From the NCBI RefSeq assembly GCF_013315695.1, contig NZ_CP054353.1: a stretch of 64,000 nucleotides of DNA; one strand, written 5' to 3'. This DNA is from Escherichia coli. Its GTDB lineage: Bacteria > Pseudomonadota > Gammaproteobacteria > Enterobacterales > Enterobacteriaceae. Within the stretch, counting starts at the first letter, position 1. Each line of letters opens with the position of its first letter. Made by a program: the position numbers and the translations under genes. Shown here one piece after another: positions 1 through 63,829 of the stretch. The notes under the pieces were generated by a model. That model made no database searches. It saw nothing but the letters and a program-made list of their open reading frames with translations, and was not told the DNA's origin.

Positions 1-79
1 CACCAGAAAGGCGCTTAAGAAACGGGTGATGCTGCCAACTTACTGATTTAGTGTATGATGGTGTTTTTGAGGTGCTCCA

Positions 80-355
80 GTGGCTTCTGTTTCTATCAGC
101 TGTCCCTCCTGTTCAGCTACTGACGGGGTGGTGCGTAACGGCAAAAGCACCGCCGGACATCAGCGCTATCTCTGCTCTCACTGCCGTAAAACATGGCAAC
201 TGCAGTTCACTTACACCGCTTCTCAACCCGGTACGCACCAGAAAATCATTGATATGGCCATGAATGGCGTTGGATGCCGGGCAACAGCCCGCATTATGGG
301 CGTTGGCCTCAACACGATTTTACGTCACTTAAAAAACTCAGGCCGCAGTCGGTAA
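80..355 (+). CDS. insA: IS1 protein InsA (91 aa)
   Basis: ORF track 91 aa [16 protein letters not shown]...; recognised InsA sequence. Confidence 0.9.
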
Positions 356-777
356 CCTCGCGCATACAGCCGGGCAGTGACGTCATCGTCTGCGCGGAAA
401 TGGACGAACAGTGGGGCTATGTCGGGGCTAAATCGCGCCAGCGCTGGCTGTTTTACGCGTATGACAGGCTCCGGAAGACGGTTGTTGCGCACGTATTCGG
501 TGAACGCACTATGGCGACGCTGGGGCGTCTTATGAGCCTGCTGTCACCCTTTGACGTGGTGATATGGATGACGGATGGCTGGCCGCTGTATGAATCCCGC
601 CTGAAGGGAAAGCTGCACGTAATCAGCAAGCGATATACGCAGCGAATTGAGCGGCATAACCTGAATCTGAGGCAGCACCTGGCACGGCTGGGACGGAAGT
701 CGCTGTCGTTCTCAAAATCGGTGGAGCTGCATGACAAAGTCATCGGGCATTATCTGAACATAAAACACTATCAATAA
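274..777 (+). CDS. insB: IS1 InsB reading frame (167 aa); transposase is made as InsAB by -1 frameshift
   Basis: ORF track 167 aa [16 protein letters not shown]...; overlaps insA 3' end as in IS1. Confidence 0.9.
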
Positions 778-846
778 GTTGGAGTCATTACCGGATTTTC
801 TTAACCCGTACTATACACATAGGGGCAATGATAAAAGGTGGCAAAA

Positions 847-23207: not shown

Positions 23208-23479
23208 TACCGTTGTCTCTCGTCCAGGTTTACTCCTGATAGAAAGTCATCGGCACTTGACGGTAATTACTTATGACCAAAAACCTCTTTGCGTCACATT
23301 TTTACAACAATTATGGCAGAGAAGAATAATGCCATTGGAATGAAGAGAGTAACGAACGGCTAAACCGAATGACGAAAAATTCTGGAAAACAGCACGCAAT
23401 TTCGTCAAGTGATTATTTTCGTCCCTAAGGAAACCTCATAGGATGCCTGCGGGTGCCTGAGACTTTCTGTTTTCAGGCT

Positions 23480-23538
23480 AACCGGGAATCAGAAAGACGA
23501 AGGCCCCGACCGATATTTCTATCAACCGAGGCCAACGA

Positions 23539-23545
<7 letters not shown>
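23480..23545 (-). ncRNA. sokB: Putative SokB antisense RNA (position approximate)
   Basis: Inferred from hok/sok organisation: antisense to the mokB leader; not resolved directly in sequence. Confidence 0.3.
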
Positions 23546-23746
<201 letters not shown>

Positions 23747-24161: not shown

Positions 24162-24225
24162 CTTCCGATGTAGGCCCGTATTCTTCGCCTGTACCACGGG
24201 TCGGTTTTAGTACAGGCGTTTTCTT
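24162..24225 (+). ncRNA. rydC: RydC small RNA (pseudoknot sRNA)
   Basis: CTTCCGATGTAGGCCCGTATTCTTCGCCTGTACCACGGGTCGGTTTTAGTACAGGCGTTTTCTT between ydcA and cybB, matching my recollection of RydC. Confidence 0.6.
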
Positions 24226-38597: not shown

Positions 38598-38652
38598 GGT
38601 GATGCTGCCAACTTACTGATTTAGTGTATGATGGTGTTTTTGAGGTGCTCCA

Positions 38653-38928
38653 GTGGCTTCTGTTTCTATCAGCTGTCCCTCCTGTTCAGCTACTGACGGG
38701 GTGGTGCGTAACGGCAAAAGCACCGCCGGACATCAGCGCTATCTCTGCTCTCACTGCCGTAAAACATGGCAACTGCAGTTCACTTACACCGCTTCTCAAC
38801 CCGGTACGCACCAGAAAATCATTGATATGGCCATGAATGGCGTTGGATGCCGGGCAACAGCCCGCATTATGGGCGTTGGCCTCAACACGATTTTACGTCA
38901 CTTAAAAAACTCAGGCCGCAGTCGGTAA
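38653..38928 (+). CDS. insA: IS1 InsA
   Basis: Translation identical to copy 1 InsA. Confidence 0.9.
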
Positions 38929-39350
38929 CCTCGCGCATACAGCCGGGCAGTGACGTCATCGTCTGCGCGGAAATGGACGAACAGTGGGGCTATGTCGGGG
39001 CTAAATCGCGCCAGCGCTGGCTGTTTTACGCGTATGACAGGCTCCGGAAGACGGTTGTTGCGCACGTATTCGGTGAACGCACTATGGCGACGCTGGGGCG
39101 TCTTATGAGCCTGCTGTCACCCTTTGACGTGGTGATATGGATGACGGATGGCTGGCCGCTGTATGAATCCCGCCTGAAGGGAAAGCTGCACGTAATCAGC
39201 AAGCGATATACGCAGCGAATTGAGCGGCATAACCTGAATCTGAGGCAGCACCTGGCACGGCTGGGACGGAAGTCGCTGTCGTTCTCAAAATCGGTGGAGC
39301 TGCATGACAAAGTCATCGGGCATTATCTGAACATAAAACACTATCAATAA
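38847..39350 (+). CDS. insB: IS1 InsB reading frame
   Basis: Translation identical to copy 1 InsB. Confidence 0.9.
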
Positions 39351-39505
39351 GTTGGAGTCATTACCACTTGAACCGATAATAAACGCAGAAATTCTATTTT
39401 GTAGCTCATTGTTGCCTCCTGTGTGAATTGTTCGAATCTACCAGGCTGCGATGAAAGAAGTCGTGTAGTAGAGAGCTATACCCGCAACAAGCGGGGCAGA
39501 CGTTC

Positions 39506-44923: not shown

Positions 44924-47900
44924 ATGATTACTATTGACGGTAATGGCGCGGTTGCTTCGGTGGCGTTTCGCACCAGTGAAGTTATCGCCATCTACCCTAT
45001 TACCCCCAGTTCCACGATGGCAGAACAGGCTGATGCCTGGGCCGGAAACGGCTTGAAGAACGTTTGGGGAGACACACCACGCGTGGTTGAAATGCAGTCG
45101 GAAGCGGGTGCTATCGCTACCGTGCATGGCGCTTTGCAGACGGGTGCCCTTTCAACATCGTTTACGTCATCGCAGGGTTTGCTGCTGATGATCCCGACGC
45201 TGTACAAACTGGCAGGCGAACTGACGCCATTTGTCCTGCATGTAGCGGCACGTACCGTTGCCACACATGCACTCTCTATTTTTGGCGATCATTCCGACGT
45301 TATGGCGGTGCGCCAGACGGGTTGCGCGATGTTGTGTGCGGCTAACGTCCAGGAAGTGCAAGACTTTGCTCTCATTTCGCACATCGCAACGCTGAAGAGC
45401 CGCGTGCCATTTATTCATTTCTTTGATGGTTTCCGCACGTCCCACGAAATCAATAAAATTGTCCCGCTGGCCGATGACACTATTCTTGATCTCATGCCGC
45501 AGGCCGAAATTGATGCTCATCGCGCCCGGGCGCTCAACCCGGAACATCCGGTGATCCGCGGTACGTCCGCCAATCCTGACACTTATTTCCAGTCTCGCGA
45601 AGCCACCAACCCCTGGTACAACGCGGTCTATGACCATGTTGAACAGGCGATGAATGATTTCGCTGCCGCGACAGGTCGTCAGTATCAACCGTTTGAGTAT
45701 TATGGGCATCCGCAAGCGGAACGGGTGATTATCCTGATGGGCTCAGCCATTGGCACCTGTGAAGAAGTGGTTGATGAATTGCTAACCCGTGGCGAAAAAG
45801 TCGGCGTGCTGAAAGTTCGCCTGTACCGTCCCTTCTCCGCCAAACACTTGCTACAAGCTCTGCCGGGATCCGTACGCAGCGTGGCGGTACTGGACAGAAC
45901 CAAAGAACCCGGTGCCCAGGCAGAACCGCTCTATCTGGATGTGATGACCGCACTGGCAGAAGCCTTTAATAATGGCGAGCGCGAAACCCTGCCCCGTGTC
46001 ATTGGTGGGCGCTATGGTCTTTCATCCAAAGAATTTGGCCCGGACTGTGTACTGGCGGTATTTGCCGAGCTCAACGCGGCTAAACCGAAAGCGCGCTTTA
46101 CGGTTGGTATTTACGATGATGTGACCAATCTGTCACTGCCGTTGCCGGAAAACACCCTGCCAAACTCGGCGAAACTTGAAGCCTTGTTTTATGGCCTTGG
46201 TAGTGATGGCAGCGTTTCCGCGACCAAAAACAATATCAAGATTATCGGTAATTCCACGCCGTGGTACGCACAGGGCTATTTTGTTTACGACTCCAAAAAG
46301 GCGGGCGGCCTGACGGTTTCTCATCTTCGTGTGAGCGAACAGCCGATTCGTTCCGCTTATCTGATTTCCCAGGCTGATTTTGTTGGCTGCCACCAGTTGC
46401 AGTTTATCGATAAATATCAGATGGCTGAACGTTTAAAACCTGGCGGCATTTTCCTGCTCAACACGCCGTACAGCGCAGATGAAGTATGGTCGCGCTTGCC
46501 GCAGGAAGTTCAGGCCGTGTTAAACCAGAAAAAAGCGCGCTTCTATGTGATTAACGCGGCGAAAATCGCCCGCGAATGTGGCCTGGCGGCCCGTATTAAT
46601 ACCGTCATGCAGATGGCTTTTTTCCATCTTACGCAAATTCTGCCTGGCGATAGCGCCCTCGCAGAATTGCAGGGTGCGATTGCCAAAAGTTACAGTAGCA
46701 AAGGCCAGGATCTGGTGGAACGCAACTGGCAGGCTCTGGCGCTGGCACGTGAATCCGTAGAAGAAGTTCCGCTGCAACCAGTAAATCCGCACAGCGCCAA
46801 TCGACCGCCAGTGGTTTCCGATGCCGCCCCTGATTTCGTGAAAACCGTAACCGCGGCGATGCTCGCCGGGCTTGGTGATGCCCTCCCCGTTTCGGCGCTG
46901 CCGCCAGACGGCACCTGGCCGATGGGCACCACGCGCTGGGAAAAACGCAATATCGCCGAAGAGATCCCCATCTGGAAAGAGGAACTCTGCACCCAATGTA
47001 ACCACTGCGTCGCTGCTTGCCCACACTCAGCTATTCGCGCAAAAGTGGTACCGCCTGAAGCGATGGAAAACGCCCCTGCCAGCCTGCATTCGCTGGATGT
47101 GAAATCGCGTGATATGCGCGGGCAGAAATATGTCTTGCAGGTGGCTCCGGAAGATTGCACGGGTTGTAACCTGTGCGTCGAAGTTTGCCCGGCGAAAGAC
47201 CGTCAGGATCCAGAGATTAAAGCCATCAATATGATGTCGCGGCTGGAACATGTCGAGGAAGAGAAAATCAATTACGACTTCTTCCTGAATTTACCAGAAA
47301 TCGATCGCAGCAAACTGGAACGTATTGATATTCGTACATCGCAACTGATTACACCGCTGTTTGAATATTCAGGTGCTTGCTCTGGTTGTGGCGAGACGCC
47401 GTATATTAAATTGCTGACTCAGCTCTATGGCGATCGGATGTTGATCGCTAACGCTACGGGTTGTTCTTCAATTTATGGTGGTAACCTGCCCTCCACACCA
47501 TATACCACTGATGCCAACGGTCGTGGACCGGCATGGGCGAACTCGCTGTTTGAAGATAACGCCGAATTCGGCCTTGGTTTCCGCCTTACGGTCGATCAAC
47601 ACCGTGTCCGCGTGCTGCGTCTGCTGGATCAATTTGCCGATAAAATCCCGGCGGAATTACTGACTGCGTTGAAATCAGACGCTACGCCAGAGATTCGTCG
47701 TGAACAGGTTGCAGCTTTACGCCAGCAACTCAACGATGTTGCCGAAGCACATGAACTGCTACGTGACGCAGATGCTCTGGTGGAAAAATCAATCTGGCTG
47801 ATTGGTGGTGACGGCTGGGCTTACGATATCGGCTTTGGTGGTCTGGATCATGTATTGAGTTTGACGGAAAACGTCAACATTCTGGTGCTGGATACGCAAT

Positions 47901-48448
47901 GCTATTCCAACACCGGTGGTCAGGCGTCGAAAGCGACACCGCTGGGTGCAGTAACTAAGTTCGGCGAGCACGGCAAACGTAAAGCGCGTAAAGATCTTGG
48001 CGTCAGTATGATGATGTACGGTCATGTTTATGTGGCGCAGATTTCTCTCGGCGCGCAGCTGAACCAGACGGTGAAAGCGATTCAGGAAGCGGAAGCGTAT
48101 CCGGGACCATCGCTGATCATTGCTTATAGCCCGTGTGAAGAGCATGGTTACGATCTGGCTCTCAGCCACGACCAGATGCGCCAACTCACTGCTACCGGCT
48201 TCTGGCCGCTATATCGCTTCGATCCTCGTCGTGCCGATGAAGGCAAACTGCCGCTGGCGCTGGATTCACGCCCGCCGTCAGAAGCACTGGAAGAAACGTT
48301 ACTTCATGAGCAACGTTTCCGTCGTCTGAATTCGCAGCAGCCAGAAGTGGCAGAACAGTTATGGAAAGATGCTGCAGCTGATTTGCAAAAACGCTATGAC
48401 TTCCTGGCACAAATGGCCGGAAAAGCGGAAAAAAGCAACACCGATTAA
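44924..48448 (+). CDS. ydbK: Pyruvate:flavodoxin oxidoreductase (1174 aa)
   Basis: 4Fe-4S ferredoxin CxxCxxCxxxCP motifs and TPP-binding region in translation. Confidence 0.9.
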   Translation: MITIDGNGAVASVAFRTSEVIAIYPITPSSTMAEQADAWAGNGLKNVWGDTPRVVEMQSEAGAIATVHGALQTGALSTSFTSSQGLLLMIPTLYKLAGELTPFVLHVAARTVATHALSIFGDHSDVMAVRQTGCAMLCAANVQEVQDFALISHIATLKSRVPFIHFFDGFRTSHEINKIVPLADDTILDLMPQAEIDAHRARALNPEHPVIRGTSANPDTYFQSREATNPWYNAVYDHVEQAMNDFAAATGRQYQPFEYYGHPQAERVIILMGSAIGTCEEVVDELLTRGEKVGVLKVRLYRPFSAKHLLQALPGSVRSVAVLDRTKEPGAQAEPLYLDVMTALAEAFNNGERETLPRVIGGRYGLSSKEFGPDCVLAVFAELNAAKPKARFTVGIYDDVTNLSLPLPENTLPNSAKLEALFYGLGSDGSVSATKNNIKIIGNSTPWYAQGYFVYDSKKAGGLTVSHLRVSEQPIRSAYLISQADFVGCHQLQFIDKYQMAERLKPGGIFLLNTPYSADEVWSRLPQEVQAVLNQKKARFYVINAAKIARECGLAARINTVMQMAFFHLTQILPGDSALAELQGAIAKSYSSKGQDLVERNWQALALARESVEEVPLQPVNPHSANRPPVVSDAAPDFVKTVTAAMLAGLGDALPVSALPPDGTWPMGTTRWEKRNIAEEIPIWKEELCTQCNHCVAACPHSAIRAKVVPPEAMENAPASLHSLDVKSRDMRGQKYVLQVAPEDCTGCNLCVEVCPAKDRQDPEIKAINMMSRLEHVEEEKINYDFFLNLPEIDRSKLERIDIRTSQLITPLFEYSGACSGCGETPYIKLLTQLYGDRMLIANATGCSSIYGGNLPSTPYTTDANGRGPAWANSLFEDNAEFGLGFRLTVDQHRVRVLRLLDQFADKIPAELLTALKSDATPEIRREQVAALRQQLNDVAEAHELLRDADALVEKSIWLIGGDGWAYDIGFGGLDHVLSLTENVNILVLDTQCYSNTGGQASKATPLGAVTKFGEHGKRKARKDLGVSMMMYGHVYVAQISLGAQLNQTVKAIQEAEAYPGPSLIIAYSPCEEHGYDLALSHDQMRQLTATGFWPLYRFDPRRADEGKLPLALDSRPPSEALEETLLHEQRFRRLNSQQPEVAEQLWKDAAADLQKRYDFLAQMAGKAEKSNTD

Positions 48449-48476
48449 ATGCTCTGGATAAGGATCATCCAATTCT

Positions 48477-48571
48477 AAAAAAAAGCCCGGACGACGGTTC
48501 GGGCTTGTCTCATTATTTGTTGGATAAACAGTAACAAGGGTCCAACAGAAAATAATCTTTGTGACAATAAA
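48477..48571 (-). ncRNA. micC: MicC small RNA (OmpC-repressing), with its intrinsic terminator
   Basis: Minus-strand GTTATATGCCTTTATTGTCACA... 5' seed, ending in hairpin GCCCGAACCGTCGTCCGGGC plus T-run; between ydbK and ompN as in K-12. Confidence 0.6.
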
Positions 48572-48838
48572 GGCATATAACCCGCGAAGAATAACGCATC
48601 ACTATTTAAATGTATAATTTTTATTTTGTATATGTCGCCAACAATATATTCACCAGACTTATTATCATTTCAGAAGAATTATTTGATTAAGGTTTTACTT
48701 AAGGCGTAACAAATAATATTTATCGTCTAACTGAACTTCTCCTTTAGGATGCTTTCACTCCCCGAAATGGGGATAAAAGGCAAGGTGATGCTGCCAACTT
48801 ACTGATTTAGTGTATGATGGTGTTTTTGAGGTGCTCCA

Positions 48839-49114
48839 GTGGCTTCTGTTTCTATCAGCTGTCCCTCCTGTTCAGCTACTGACGGGGTGGTGCGTAACGG
48901 CAAAAGCACCGCCGGACATCAGCGCTATCTCTGCTCTCACTGCCGTAAAACATGGCAACTGCAGTTCACTTACACCGCTTCTCAACCCGGTACGCACCAG
49001 AAAATCATTGATATGGCCATGAATGGCGTTGGATGCCGGGCAACAGCCCGCATTATGGGCGTTGGCCTCAACACGATTTTACGTCACTTAAAAAACTCAG
49101 GCCGCAGTCGGTAA
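48839..49114 (+). CDS. insA: IS1 InsA
   Basis: Translation identical to copy 1 InsA. Confidence 0.9.
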
Positions 49115-49536
49115 CCTCGCGCATACAGCCGGGCAGTGACGTCATCGTCTGCGCGGAAATGGACGAACAGTGGGGCTATGTCGGGGCTAAATCGCGCCAG
49201 CGCTGGCTGTTTTACGCGTATGACAGGCTCCGGAAGACGGTTGTTGCGCACGTATTCGGTGAACGCACTATGGCGACGCTGGGGCGTCTTATGAGCCTGC
49301 TGTCACCCTTTGACGTGGTGATATGGATGACGGATGGCTGGCCGCTGTATGAATCCCGCCTGAAGGGAAAGCTGCACGTAATCAGCAAGCGATATACGCA
49401 GCGAATTGAGCGGCATAACCTGAATCTGAGGCAGCACCTGGCACGGCTGGGACGGAAGTCGCTGTCGTTCTCAAAATCGGTGGAGCTGCATGACAAAGTC
49501 ATCGGGCATTATCTGAACATAAAACACTATCAATAA
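49033..49536 (+). CDS. insB: IS1 InsB reading frame
   Basis: Translation identical to copy 1 InsB. Confidence 0.9.
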
Positions 49537-49551
49537 GTTGGAGTCATTACC

Positions 49552-50357
49552 TCGATTACGGACGTAATTATGGCGTAATGTACGACATCGAAGGCTGGAC
49601 CGATATGCTGCCTGAATTTGGCGGTGACTCTTATACCAATGCAGACAACTTTATGACTGGTCGTGCCAACGGCGTCGCGACTTATCGTAATACTGATTTC
49701 TTCGGTCTGGTAAATGGTCTGAACTTCGCAGTGCAGTATCAAGGTAACAACGAAGGTGCCAGTAATGGTCAGGAAGGCACCAACAACGGACGTGATGTTC
49801 GCCATGAAAACGGTGACGGCTGGGGTCTTTCCACAACATATGATTTAGGCATGGGCTTTAGCGCTGGTGCGGCATACACCTCATCTGACCGCACCAATGA
49901 CCAGGTTAACCATACTGCGGCAGGTGGTGATAAAGCAGACGCGTGGACTGCTGGGCTAAAATACGATGCTAACAATATTTACCTGGCAACCATGTATTCA
50001 GAAACACGTAACATGACCCCGTTTGGCGACAGCGATTATGCAGTTGCGAACAAAACCCAGAACTTTGAAGTTACTGCACAGTACCAGTTTGATTTTGGTC
50101 TGCGTCCGGCAGTCTCTTTCCTGATGTCTAAAGGCCGTGACCTTCACGCTGCCGGTGGTGCAGACAACCCGGCAGGTGTTGATGATAAAGATCTGGTTAA
50201 ATACGCCGATGTTGGCGCGACTTACTATTTCAACAAAAATATGTCCACCTACGTTGACTATAAAATCAACCTGTTGGATGAAGATGACAGCTTCTACGCT
50301 GCCAACGGCATCTCTACCGATGATATTGTCGCTTTAGGTCTGGTTTATCAGTTCTAA
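49552..50357 (+). pseudogene. ompN: 3' portion of outer membrane porin gene truncated by IS1; ompN by synteny
   Basis: Frame open from the IS1 junction (..[15 protein letters not shown]..) to a porin-type C terminus LGLVYQF; N-terminal ~110 codons and promoter missing. Confidence 0.75.
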
Positions 50358-50964: not shown

Positions 50965-51421
50965 GATTCATTTCGCAAATGTGCTGACATTTTCCCCTCT
51001 AATCCGTACCATACACGCCACAGTTTTTATATCAGATTTCTTATGCTGGGCGTTCCGGCATGACGCATACTCTTCTGATGCCATATAACGAATTGAGTCG
51101 CTTTTAAATGTCGCAAAATCAAGAAATTAGTAAGAAAGAACAATACAACCTGAACAAGTAAGGGCAAAAATCACAACTCTCTGACTCATAAGTATTTTAC
51201 TTATTTTTCAATGTGTTAAATATCATCAGCGACAACAATAAGCTACGATAACCCACTCTTTTTTTGCCCCTTTTTTGCCCCTTTTGCAGCGCTTTGCCCC
51301 ATTTTTGCCATCAACAATTTTCCTCATCAAGTCATTTCAAAGCCTAATAGGTGCCCTACTTTTTTCCTCAGTACCACGTCGCCAGCAGGAAACAACCTAA
51401 TCCCGGTTCGGATCTAAAATT

Positions 51422-57087: not shown

Positions 57088-57148
57088 TAAAACGAGGCGC
57101 TCGGCCCCTTAATATTATTTAGACGCAAGCGTCGGTAATGACTCCAAC

Positions 57149-57652
57149 TTATTGATAGTGTTTTATGTTCAGATAATGCCCGATGACTTTGTCATGCAGC
57201 TCCACCGATTTTGAGAACGACAGCGACTTCCGTCCCAGCCGTGCCAGGTGCTGCCTCAGATTCAGGTTATGCCGCTCAATTCGCTGCGTATATCGCTTGC
57301 TGATTACGTGCAGCTTTCCCTTCAGGCGGGATTCATACAGCGGCCAGCCATCCGTCATCCATATCACCACGTCAAAGGGTGACAGCAGGCTCATAAGACG
57401 CCCCAGCGTCGCCATAGTGCGTTCACCGAATACGTGCGCAACAACCGTCTTCCGGAGCCTGTCATACGCGTAAAACAGCCAGCGCTGGCGCGATTTAGCC
57501 CCGACATAGCCCCACTGTTCGTCCATTTCCGCGCAGACGATGACGTCACTGCCCGGCTGTATGCGCGAGGTTACCGACTGCGGCCTGAGTTTTTTAAGTG
57601 ACGTAAAATCGTGTTGAGGCCAACGCCCATAATGCGGGCTGTTGCCCGGCAT
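57149..57652 (-). CDS. insB: IS1 InsB reading frame
   Basis: Translation identical to copy 1 InsB. Confidence 0.9.
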
Positions 57653-57846
57653 CCAACGCCATTCATGGCCATATCAATGATTTTCTGGTGCGTACCGGGT
57701 TGAGAAGCGGTGTAAGTGAACTGCAGTTGCCATGTTTTACGGCAGTGAGAGCAGAGATAGCGCTGATGTCCGGCGGTGCTTTTGCCGTTACGCACCACCC
57801 CGTCAGTAGCTGAACAGGAGGGACAGCTGATAGAAACAGAAGCCAC
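57571..57846 (-). CDS. insA: IS1 InsA
   Basis: Translation identical to copy 1 InsA. Confidence 0.9.
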
Positions 57847-57925
57847 TGGAGCACCTCAAAAACACCATCATACACTAAATCAGTAAGTTGGCAGCATCAC
57901 CCCCGGCGTTAAGGGGAGAGATAAG

Positions 57926-63453: not shown

Positions 63454-63648
63454 ATGAGATATGACAATGTTAAACCATGTCCATTTTGTGGTTGTCCATC
63501 AGTAACGGTGAAAGTCATTTCAGGATATTACCGAGCGAAGTGTAACGGATGCGAATCCCGAACCGGTTATGGTGGAAGTGAAAAAGAAGCACTCGAAAGA
63601 TGGAATAAACGAACCACTGGAAATAATAACGGAGGTGTTCATGTATAA
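63454..63648 (+). CDS. ralR: Restriction alleviation protein RalR/Lar (64 aa)
   Basis: Start set at MRYDNVKPCPFCGCPSVTVKV; Cys-rich motif. Confidence 0.7.
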   Translation: MRYDNVKPCPFCGCPSVTVKVISGYYRAKCNGCESRTGYGGSEKEALERWNKRTTGNNNGGVHV

Positions 63649-63829
63649 AATTACCGCCACTATTGAAAAGGAAGGTGGCACTCCTACTAACTGGACAAGA
63701 TATTCAAAATCTAAACTAACGAAATCAGAATGCGAAAAAATGCTCTCAGGTAAAAAAGAAGCAGGCGTTTCCAGAGAGCAGAAAGTAAAACTGATAAATT
63801 TTAATTGCGAGAAACTTCAGTCCTCGTGA
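63641..63829 (+). CDS. ydaC: Rac prophage protein YdaC (62 aa)
   Basis: Start set at MYKITATIEKEGGTPTNW, overlapping ralR stop. Confidence 0.6.
   Translation: MYKITATIEKEGGTPTNWTRYSKSKLTKSECEKMLSGKKEAGVSREQKVKLINFNCEKLQSS

Follow-up and report, generated by a model that had tools for sequence, protein, structure and literature searches.

What becomes of a small RNA gene when the porin gene with which it shares its upstream region loses its start to an insertion sequence? This question is raised by the micC-ompN locus in the window, by which we mean the whole stretch of 64,000 nt under analysis (E. coli, assembly GCF_013315695.1, contig NZ_CP054353.1; all coordinates are relative to the window). 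A sequence-only reading of this DNA had proposed that micC is retained, that an IS1 copy cuts off ompN, and that the regulation of micC may be altered in consequence. The locus is the standard E. coli nifJ-micC-ompN-uspF arrangement, here in a strain of an IS1-rich lineage. On its left side lies nifJ (ydbK; 44924-48448, plus strand), which was assigned from the ORF list, from the RefSeq annotation in relatives and from the exact protein on record. It is convergent with micC and, as the conserved left neighbour, fixes the synteny: micC sits between nifJ and ompN and is divergent from the latter. That micC and ompN are divergent neighbours with one common intergenic region, as had been stated for K-12, is borne out by the alignment and by the literature (PMC5745476). 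Downstream of what is left of ompN follow uspF and then sitA. Between these two genes, the stretch 51255-51320 holds about four copies of a TTTTGCCCC-like motif (ctttttttgccccttttttgccccttttgcagcgctttgccccatttttgcc), and K-12 carries Rac prophage genes where the window has sitABCD.

A 351-bp query comprising micC and the intergenic region was compared with 5,426 complete E. coli genomes and found matches in 5,404 of them. Identity was at least 99% in 5 genomes, 95-99% in 496 and 80-90% in 4,794, the last class including K-12, CFT073 and O157:H7. The top match is E. coli MSB1_4I (NZ_LR898874.1; L001 in our set of contigs). When a longer query of 24,001 bp (36000-60000) was used, MSB1_4I and NZ_OZ547117.1 matched it at 100.0% identity, the match being split into two pieces with a total span of 24,363 bp. 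A four-way alignment took in the window, MSB1_4I, K-12 and MLI108K3, and further relatives were assemblies with the exact same NifJ protein (including L004-L008). The density of IS1 had raised the suspicion of a Shigella origin; we rejected it, since the 24 kb are 100% identical to two genomes filed as E. coli.

The small RNA gene is micC. Rfam cmscan, run at gathering thresholds, places a full-length match to MicC (RF00121, model positions 1-123) at 48469-48584 on the minus strand, with 104.1 bits and an E-value of 3.4e-15, the gathering score of this family being 90 bits. The MicC identity might have failed in this search, and it passed. In the Rfam alignment of the window sequence no non-canonical pairs are flagged, i.e. 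all pairs are standard. The gene itself spans ~105 nt (48477-48581, minus strand), as delimited by Rfam, the alignments and the centroid fold. It starts with +1 at 48581 (GUUAUAUGCC...) and the seed of nt 1-22 (GTTATATGCCTTTATTGTCACA, the reverse complement of 48560-48581), continues with stem-loop 1 (UGUUGGA...UCCAACA) and closes with a Rho-independent terminator, in which a GC-rich hairpin is followed by a tail of eight U that ends at about 48477. Both elements on which the original assignment had been built, the seed and the terminator hairpin, are thus present. K-12 micC (MicC/IS063), which is reportedly the subject of Chen et al. 2004, served as a control and scored 125 bits, window-type alleles score 104-106 bits, and all of them lie above 90. 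The remark that the middle of the RNA differs from the K-12 version proved correct as well: 92 of 110 aligned columns (84%) are identical and 18 differ, including a 5-nt gap. All of these differences lie in stem-loop 1 or next to it, in the stretch that separates the seed from the terminator, and the loop of stem-loop 1 is 5 nt shorter than in K-12.

A seed-based scan of genome contigs yielded nine loci, which is enough for a small structural alignment and too few for a broad phylogeny. Ten MicC sequences were aligned, namely those of the window, MLI108K3, K-12, three other Escherichia lineages, E. whittamii, two Salmonella subspecies and a Citrobacter MAG. All ten agree at every position of nt 1-22, and it is the middle that varies throughout. 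When the alignment is read with the Rfam-type structure, 95% of the cells of both helices are in standard pairs, compared with 32-48% if the partners are slid by 1-3 columns. Moreover, three pairs of stem-loop 1 have changed on both sides, i.e. in a compensatory manner, and in the window the UGUUGGA/UCCAACA stem has one A-U pair where K-12 has G-U. Folding the window sequence on its own gave a centroid with stem-loop 1 and the terminator with its U8 tail (z = -2.1); the MFE fold departs from the Rfam architecture, and stem-loop 1 appears in the centroid only. A further change, A>C, is located in the tetraloop of the terminator (AGUC to CGUC; 48494, minus strand), at a position that is unpaired in the fold. 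Among the 17 loci examined, it is common only to the window and MSB1_4I, and of the two sister genomes it is MSB1_4I for which this likeness is established. On the side of the target, 5,289 of 5,426 E. coli genomes have the ompC leader with the MicC-complementary AATAAAGGCATATAAC conserved to 99% or more, which is a species-wide figure, the ompC of the window's own genome being located outside the window. We infer that micC is untouched and functional: the RNA should still be made and, with Hfq, should repress ompC by pairing with its leader.

The unusual middle of the RNA does not go back to the insertion sequence. The window-type allele is present in roughly 9% of complete E. coli genomes (about 500 of 5,404), and it occurs without IS1 in MLI108K3, L006, L008 and L009; the differences from K-12 are therefore not a consequence of IS1. 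Judged by this distribution, the different middle is a natural minority allele that is older than, and independent of, the insertion. The window diverges from K-12 chiefly in two 50-bp blocks of 72% identity each, one of them corresponding to stem-loop 1 of MicC (48499-48543) and the other to the micC promoter spacer and the sequence just upstream (48594-48643), and the flanks of the two blocks are 92-100% identical to K-12. At least four distinct alleles of the middle region exist in Escherichia, and the MicC papers on clinical E. coli do not describe allelic variation. That the several natural alleles of MicC in Escherichia diverge solely in stem-loop 1 and in the promoter spacer matters for the design of probes and primers, and it is also relevant when micC expression is compared between clinical lineages.

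Since the sequence-only reading suspected a change in regulation, the fate of the upstream region is of special concern. A core promoter can be placed at 48588-48616 on the minus strand by aligning the upstream regions of 12 micC loci: a putative -10 hexamer (TATTCT, 48588-48593) and a putative -35 hexamer (TATACA, 48611-48616) are separated by a 17-bp spacer. K-12 has the same two hexamers and a different spacer sequence. This promoter is assigned by position and conservation; a generic sigma-70 scan called neither the micC promoter nor any convincing ompN promoter. In the upstream 60 nt of the same 12 loci, a block AAAATAAAAATTATAC (48612-48627, minus strand) is nearly invariant, with at most one substitution, in Escherichia, Salmonella, Citrobacter and Pseudocitrobacter. 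The block and the micC -35 element overlap, and a perfect TATAAT on the plus strand (48613-48618) faces ompN. The block may be a shared divergent-promoter or regulator site.

A functional yardstick for this region is available from K-12, where a 184-nt fragment amplified with primers SD1 and SD2 drove a micC-lacZ reporter and responded to beta-lactams, sigma-E depletion and deletion of hns (Dam et al. 2017, PMC5745476). The two primers map to 48582-48765 of the window, with 1 and 2 mismatches, so the complete 184-nt fragment is retained and its equivalent stops 18 bp short of IS1. Altogether, primer mapping, alignment and GC content delimit a retained intergenic region of 202 bp (48582-48783) with 31.7% GC, the right edge of which is formed by the left copy of a target duplication, AAAAGGCAA, at 48775-48783. 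Deletion of the micC promoter elements, which had been named as an outcome that would count against the reading, is ruled out by the alignment with K-12: the elements are there, with the -10 and -35 hexamers and the 184-nt fragment intact. Compared with MSB1_4I, the losses from the intergenic region amount to no more than the terminal 25 bp of the leader and a single copy of the 9-bp duplication. The statement that IS1 replaces the ompN promoter therefore has to be corrected, for just these two short pieces are gone and 203 bp beside micC are kept. Any ompN promoter with a leader of more than 25 nt is still on the micC side and now faces IS1; the start site of ompN itself is only a predicted one (PMC5745476). 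At the very border, a weak terminator-like hairpin (GGCAGCATCACCTTGCC followed by TTTTAT; 48779-48795, minus strand) spans the junction between the flank and the left inverted repeat of IS1. It is probably due to chance, as shuffled sequences averaged 1.2 terminator-like sites and 2 were found in the region.

The hallmarks of IS1 are a length of about 768 bp, imperfect terminal inverted repeats of 23 bp, the genes insA and insB' with an A6C frameshift site, and a 9-bp target duplication. The element at 48784-49551 (plus strand) is an intact IS1 of 768 bp, as is evident from its sequence identity to other copies, its inverted repeats and its ORFs. From the micC +1 (48581) to the first base of the element the distance is 203 bp, close to the ~210 bp given in the sequence-only reading. 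IRL (GGTGATGCTGCCAACTTACTGAT) is directed toward micC and IRR is GGTAATGACTCCAACTTATTGAT; insA (91 aa) and insB' are read in the direction of what is left of ompN, and their A6C frameshift site is found at 49090. The copy is 100% identical to three others in the window (25-792 and 38598-39365 on the plus strand, 57134-57901 on the minus strand), and the identical copy in MSB1_4I is annotated in RefSeq as an IS1A family transposase with programmed frameshift. The 9-bp target duplication is absent at this element, which has AAAAGGCAA on the left and TCGATTACG on the right. Around the same copy in MSB1_4I, the duplication AAAAGGCAA is present. Its absence in the window is due to a secondary deletion and is no argument against the identity of the element. 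We have looked for the duplication at all four IS1 copies of the window, and none of them is flanked by it. This suggests that each copy has passed through IS1-IS1 recombination or an adjacent deletion. Therefore, IS1-IS1 recombination is clearly active, and evidently common, in the lineage of the window. Copies 2 and 4 (38598-39365 and 57134-57901) have the same flanks in MSB1_4I, and in the sister genome IS1 occupies at least 33-40 places.

Immediately behind IS1, the ompN remnant extends from 49552 to 50357 (plus strand) and corresponds to nt 329-1134 of the gene, i.e. from a partial codon 110 to codon 377 and the stop, according to the alignment and the Pfam Porin_1 match. Roughly the first 110 codons had been said to be missing; the exact number is 109 1/3, the start and the signal peptide included, before the sequence resumes at nt 329. 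Start codon context, ribosome-binding site and signal peptide are all missing from the remnant, and an in-frame stop lies upstream at 49491, within IS1. An internal ORF of 259 aa (49578-50357) still matches Pfam Porin_1. With the complete ORF of 377 codons gone, the remnant is a non-functional pseudogene.

By comparison with MSB1_4I, exactly 362 bp are missing from the window: the 9 bp of the right duplicate, the 25-bp leader, which holds the ribosome-binding site, and 328 nt of ompN. This deletion begins at the base right after IRR, its junction is without microhomology, and its flanks are identical to MSB1_4I over 3,344 and 1,877 bp. As the difference between 24,363 and 24,001 is precisely 362 bp, the deletion is the sole length difference across this stretch, and the IS1 copies in the neighbourhood are shared as well. 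In the 5,426 complete E. coli genomes, the left junction occurs as one piece in just two; the right junction of the window was not found as a single piece among the matches listed, where the 100% matches to the right-junction query were IS1 and intact ompN, in two pieces. A look-up of the exact NifJ protein retrieved relatives with and without IS1 and none with the 362-bp deletion.

A junction that is absent from the other complete genomes among the matches listed, and which moreover lies at a 768-bp repeat with at least four copies in the window, could in principle result from the assembly, the real genome having an intact ompN or two IS1 elements that were mis-joined or collapsed at the repeat. 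However, a collapse cannot yield a precise join of an IS1 end to nt 329 of ompN unless a real IS1 end exists at that place, in which case ompN would be disrupted anyway. Furthermore, two independent sister genomes agree base for base with the remainder of the 24 kb, and we regard an artefact as highly improbable.

The relatives allow the states of the locus to be put in order. In K-12 and MLI108K3, AAAAGGCAA occurs once and IS1 is absent. The relatives L006 and L008 have the window-type micC allele, also without IS1 and with ompN intact. L004, L005 and L007 carry IS1 at the same site, again with ompN intact, and in MSB1_4I IS1 has the identical left junction and site, with AAAAGGCAA on both sides and an ompN that is annotated as full length. 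According to the MSB1_4I alignment, the insertion point is 25 bp upstream of the ompN ATG. MSB1_4I and NZ_OZ547117.1 thus resemble the window in the IS1 element, its orientation, the left junction and the MicC allele, with 100.0% identity over 24 kb, but in them the right AAAAGGCAA duplicate, the leader and an ompN of all 377 codons are still in place; from this part the window lacks 362 bp. From a comparative perspective, the sequence of states is no IS1, then IS1 with its duplication, then the tetraloop SNP, and finally the 362-bp deletion. In a first step, which the comparison shows, IS1 entered the ompN leader at a point 25 bp before the ATG and, on the other side, 203 bp from the micC start, thereby duplicating AAAAGGCAA. 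In a second step, also shown by comparison, 362 bp were lost from the right end of IS1, for which an adjacent deletion mediated by IS1 through intramolecular transposition is the likeliest cause. Lying between the ribosome-binding site and any promoter, the earlier IS1 had probably blocked ompN already, by polarity, so that the deletion was probably neutral. In K-12 the gene is quiescent.

Adjacent deletions are a classical property of IS1, and those of the gal region are the classical case, reportedly from the work of Reif and Saedler in 1975. The locus shares with them an IS1 that stays intact in place, a deletion that starts from an IS1 terminus, the loss of one duplicate and the lack of microhomology. 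These features would equally fit IS1-IS1 recombination, whereby a second IS1 in direct orientation would have inserted at nt 328-337 of ompN and homologous recombination would then have removed one copy together with the 362 bp. The genome offers the means for such an exchange, being rich in IS1, with at least 33-40 places in the sister genome and four identical copies within 64 kb; the lack of a duplication at all four copies fits frequent IS1-IS1 exchange, and ompN of other strains has been hit by IS1 independently. Against it stands the lack of a double-IS1 intermediate among the matches listed for the 5,426 complete genomes or among the assemblies retrieved. It would also need two events where an adjacent deletion, the classic property of IS1, needs one. 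Because both routes give the same product, they are inseparable from sequence alone; we consider recombination between two IS1 copies a possible, though rather unlikely, route. The account as a whole, i.e. a standard locus into which IS1 inserted at the ompN leader, followed by an adjacent deletion that left micC intact and a dead ompN remnant, is very probably correct.

Relative to K-12, then, the window has the same nifJ, opposite-strand micC, ompN and uspF, and the 22-nt seed, the -10 and -35 elements and the terminator stem are the same. It differs from K-12 in MicC (84% identity, shorter loop of stem-loop 1, 104 vs 125 bits in Rfam), in the promoter spacer, in the presence of IS1 and in an ompN that is devoid of its leader and 109 codons.

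The remaining part of the question is whether IS1 affects the expression of micC. IS1 and IS5 are known to activate the bgl operon by relieving H-NS silencing, and hybrid IS promoters are known as well. At the micC locus, IS1 might act by interrupting an H-NS-silenced AT-rich region, by forming a hybrid outward promoter, or through IHF bound to its ends, so that MicC would be constitutive and OmpC lowered. It is in keeping with this idea that the intergenic DNA with 31.7% GC now abuts an IS1 of 53.4% GC, a mere 203 bp upstream of the micC +1, and that an hns mutant raises micC-lacZ about 11-fold and ompN-lacZ about 6-fold (PMC5745476). However, the 184-nt fragment that was regulated on a plasmid, including the response to the hns mutation, is fully retained. 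A scan of the minus strand at the IRL junction found no outward promoter-like site, and the insertion is common to relatives and not specific to the strain of the window. An effect of IS1 on micC, though a legitimate hypothesis in view of the bgl precedent, is doubtful. The likeness to the bgl operon is that in both an AT-rich region, reported to be H-NS-repressed, has received an IS element some 100-200 bp upstream of a promoter; for micC, in contrast to bgl with its activation by IS1 or IS5, the analogy serves only as a lead. More specifically, IS1 might split the H-NS-repressed region and relieve the silencing of micC as in bgl, the later deletion in ompN being the decay of a gene that had been uncoupled, a scenario that we hold to be slightly more doubtful still. 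If it were true, an IS1-rich, human-associated lineage would make MicC constitutively, with less OmpC and an altered permeability to beta-lactams. Strains of the lineage with and without IS1 form a natural pair for asking whether the shared micC/ompN control region must be contiguous with ompN.

The loss of ompN as such is commonplace, and in other E. coli strains the gene is often a pseudogene. OmpN is quiescent in E. coli (PMC5745476). In the assembly collection, 2,422 blocks have the 259-aa C-terminal ORF. The carriers examined (L009-L016) have a frameshift or nonsense ompN without IS1 and are therefore uninformative about the 362-bp deletion: 1-bp frameshifts account for the ORF in L009, L010, L012, L013 and L015, and a nonsense mutation accounts for it in L016. 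The genome GN03590 (L026, 1540-3449) has an independent IS1 inside ompN at about nt 312, and among the matches listed 14 complete genomes have IS1 close to the same part of the gene. These pseudogenes resemble that of the window in that a quiescent porin is lost while micC stays, but they arose by 1-bp indels, a stop codon or simple IS1 insertion, as opposed to the IS1-anchored 5' deletion seen here.

Every component of the locus, i.e. MicC, IS1 and ompN, is a known entity, and there is no chance match among these observations. What has happened is an ordinary strain-specific gene loss, and the rearrangement is a textbook IS1 event that is already known in kind. The locus records, step by step, how a clone rich in IS1 recently lost a quiescent porin gene through the action of this element, which is of little importance in itself; micC next door and the promoter fragment tested in K-12 outlast the loss of ompN. 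A literature search on IS1 and ompN pseudogenes returned one Shigella dysenteriae genome paper, in which no IS at ompN is reported, and neither the junction of the window nor the micC alleles are mentioned in the literature searched. This silence reflects triviality and not novelty. Elsewhere in the window, three other RNAs have Rfam matches above their gathering scores: a sok-like antitoxin RNA at 23451-23602 (plus strand, 109 bits), RydC at 24162-24225 (plus strand, 90.5 bits) and the RalA antitoxin RNA at 63647-63825 (minus strand, 225 bits).
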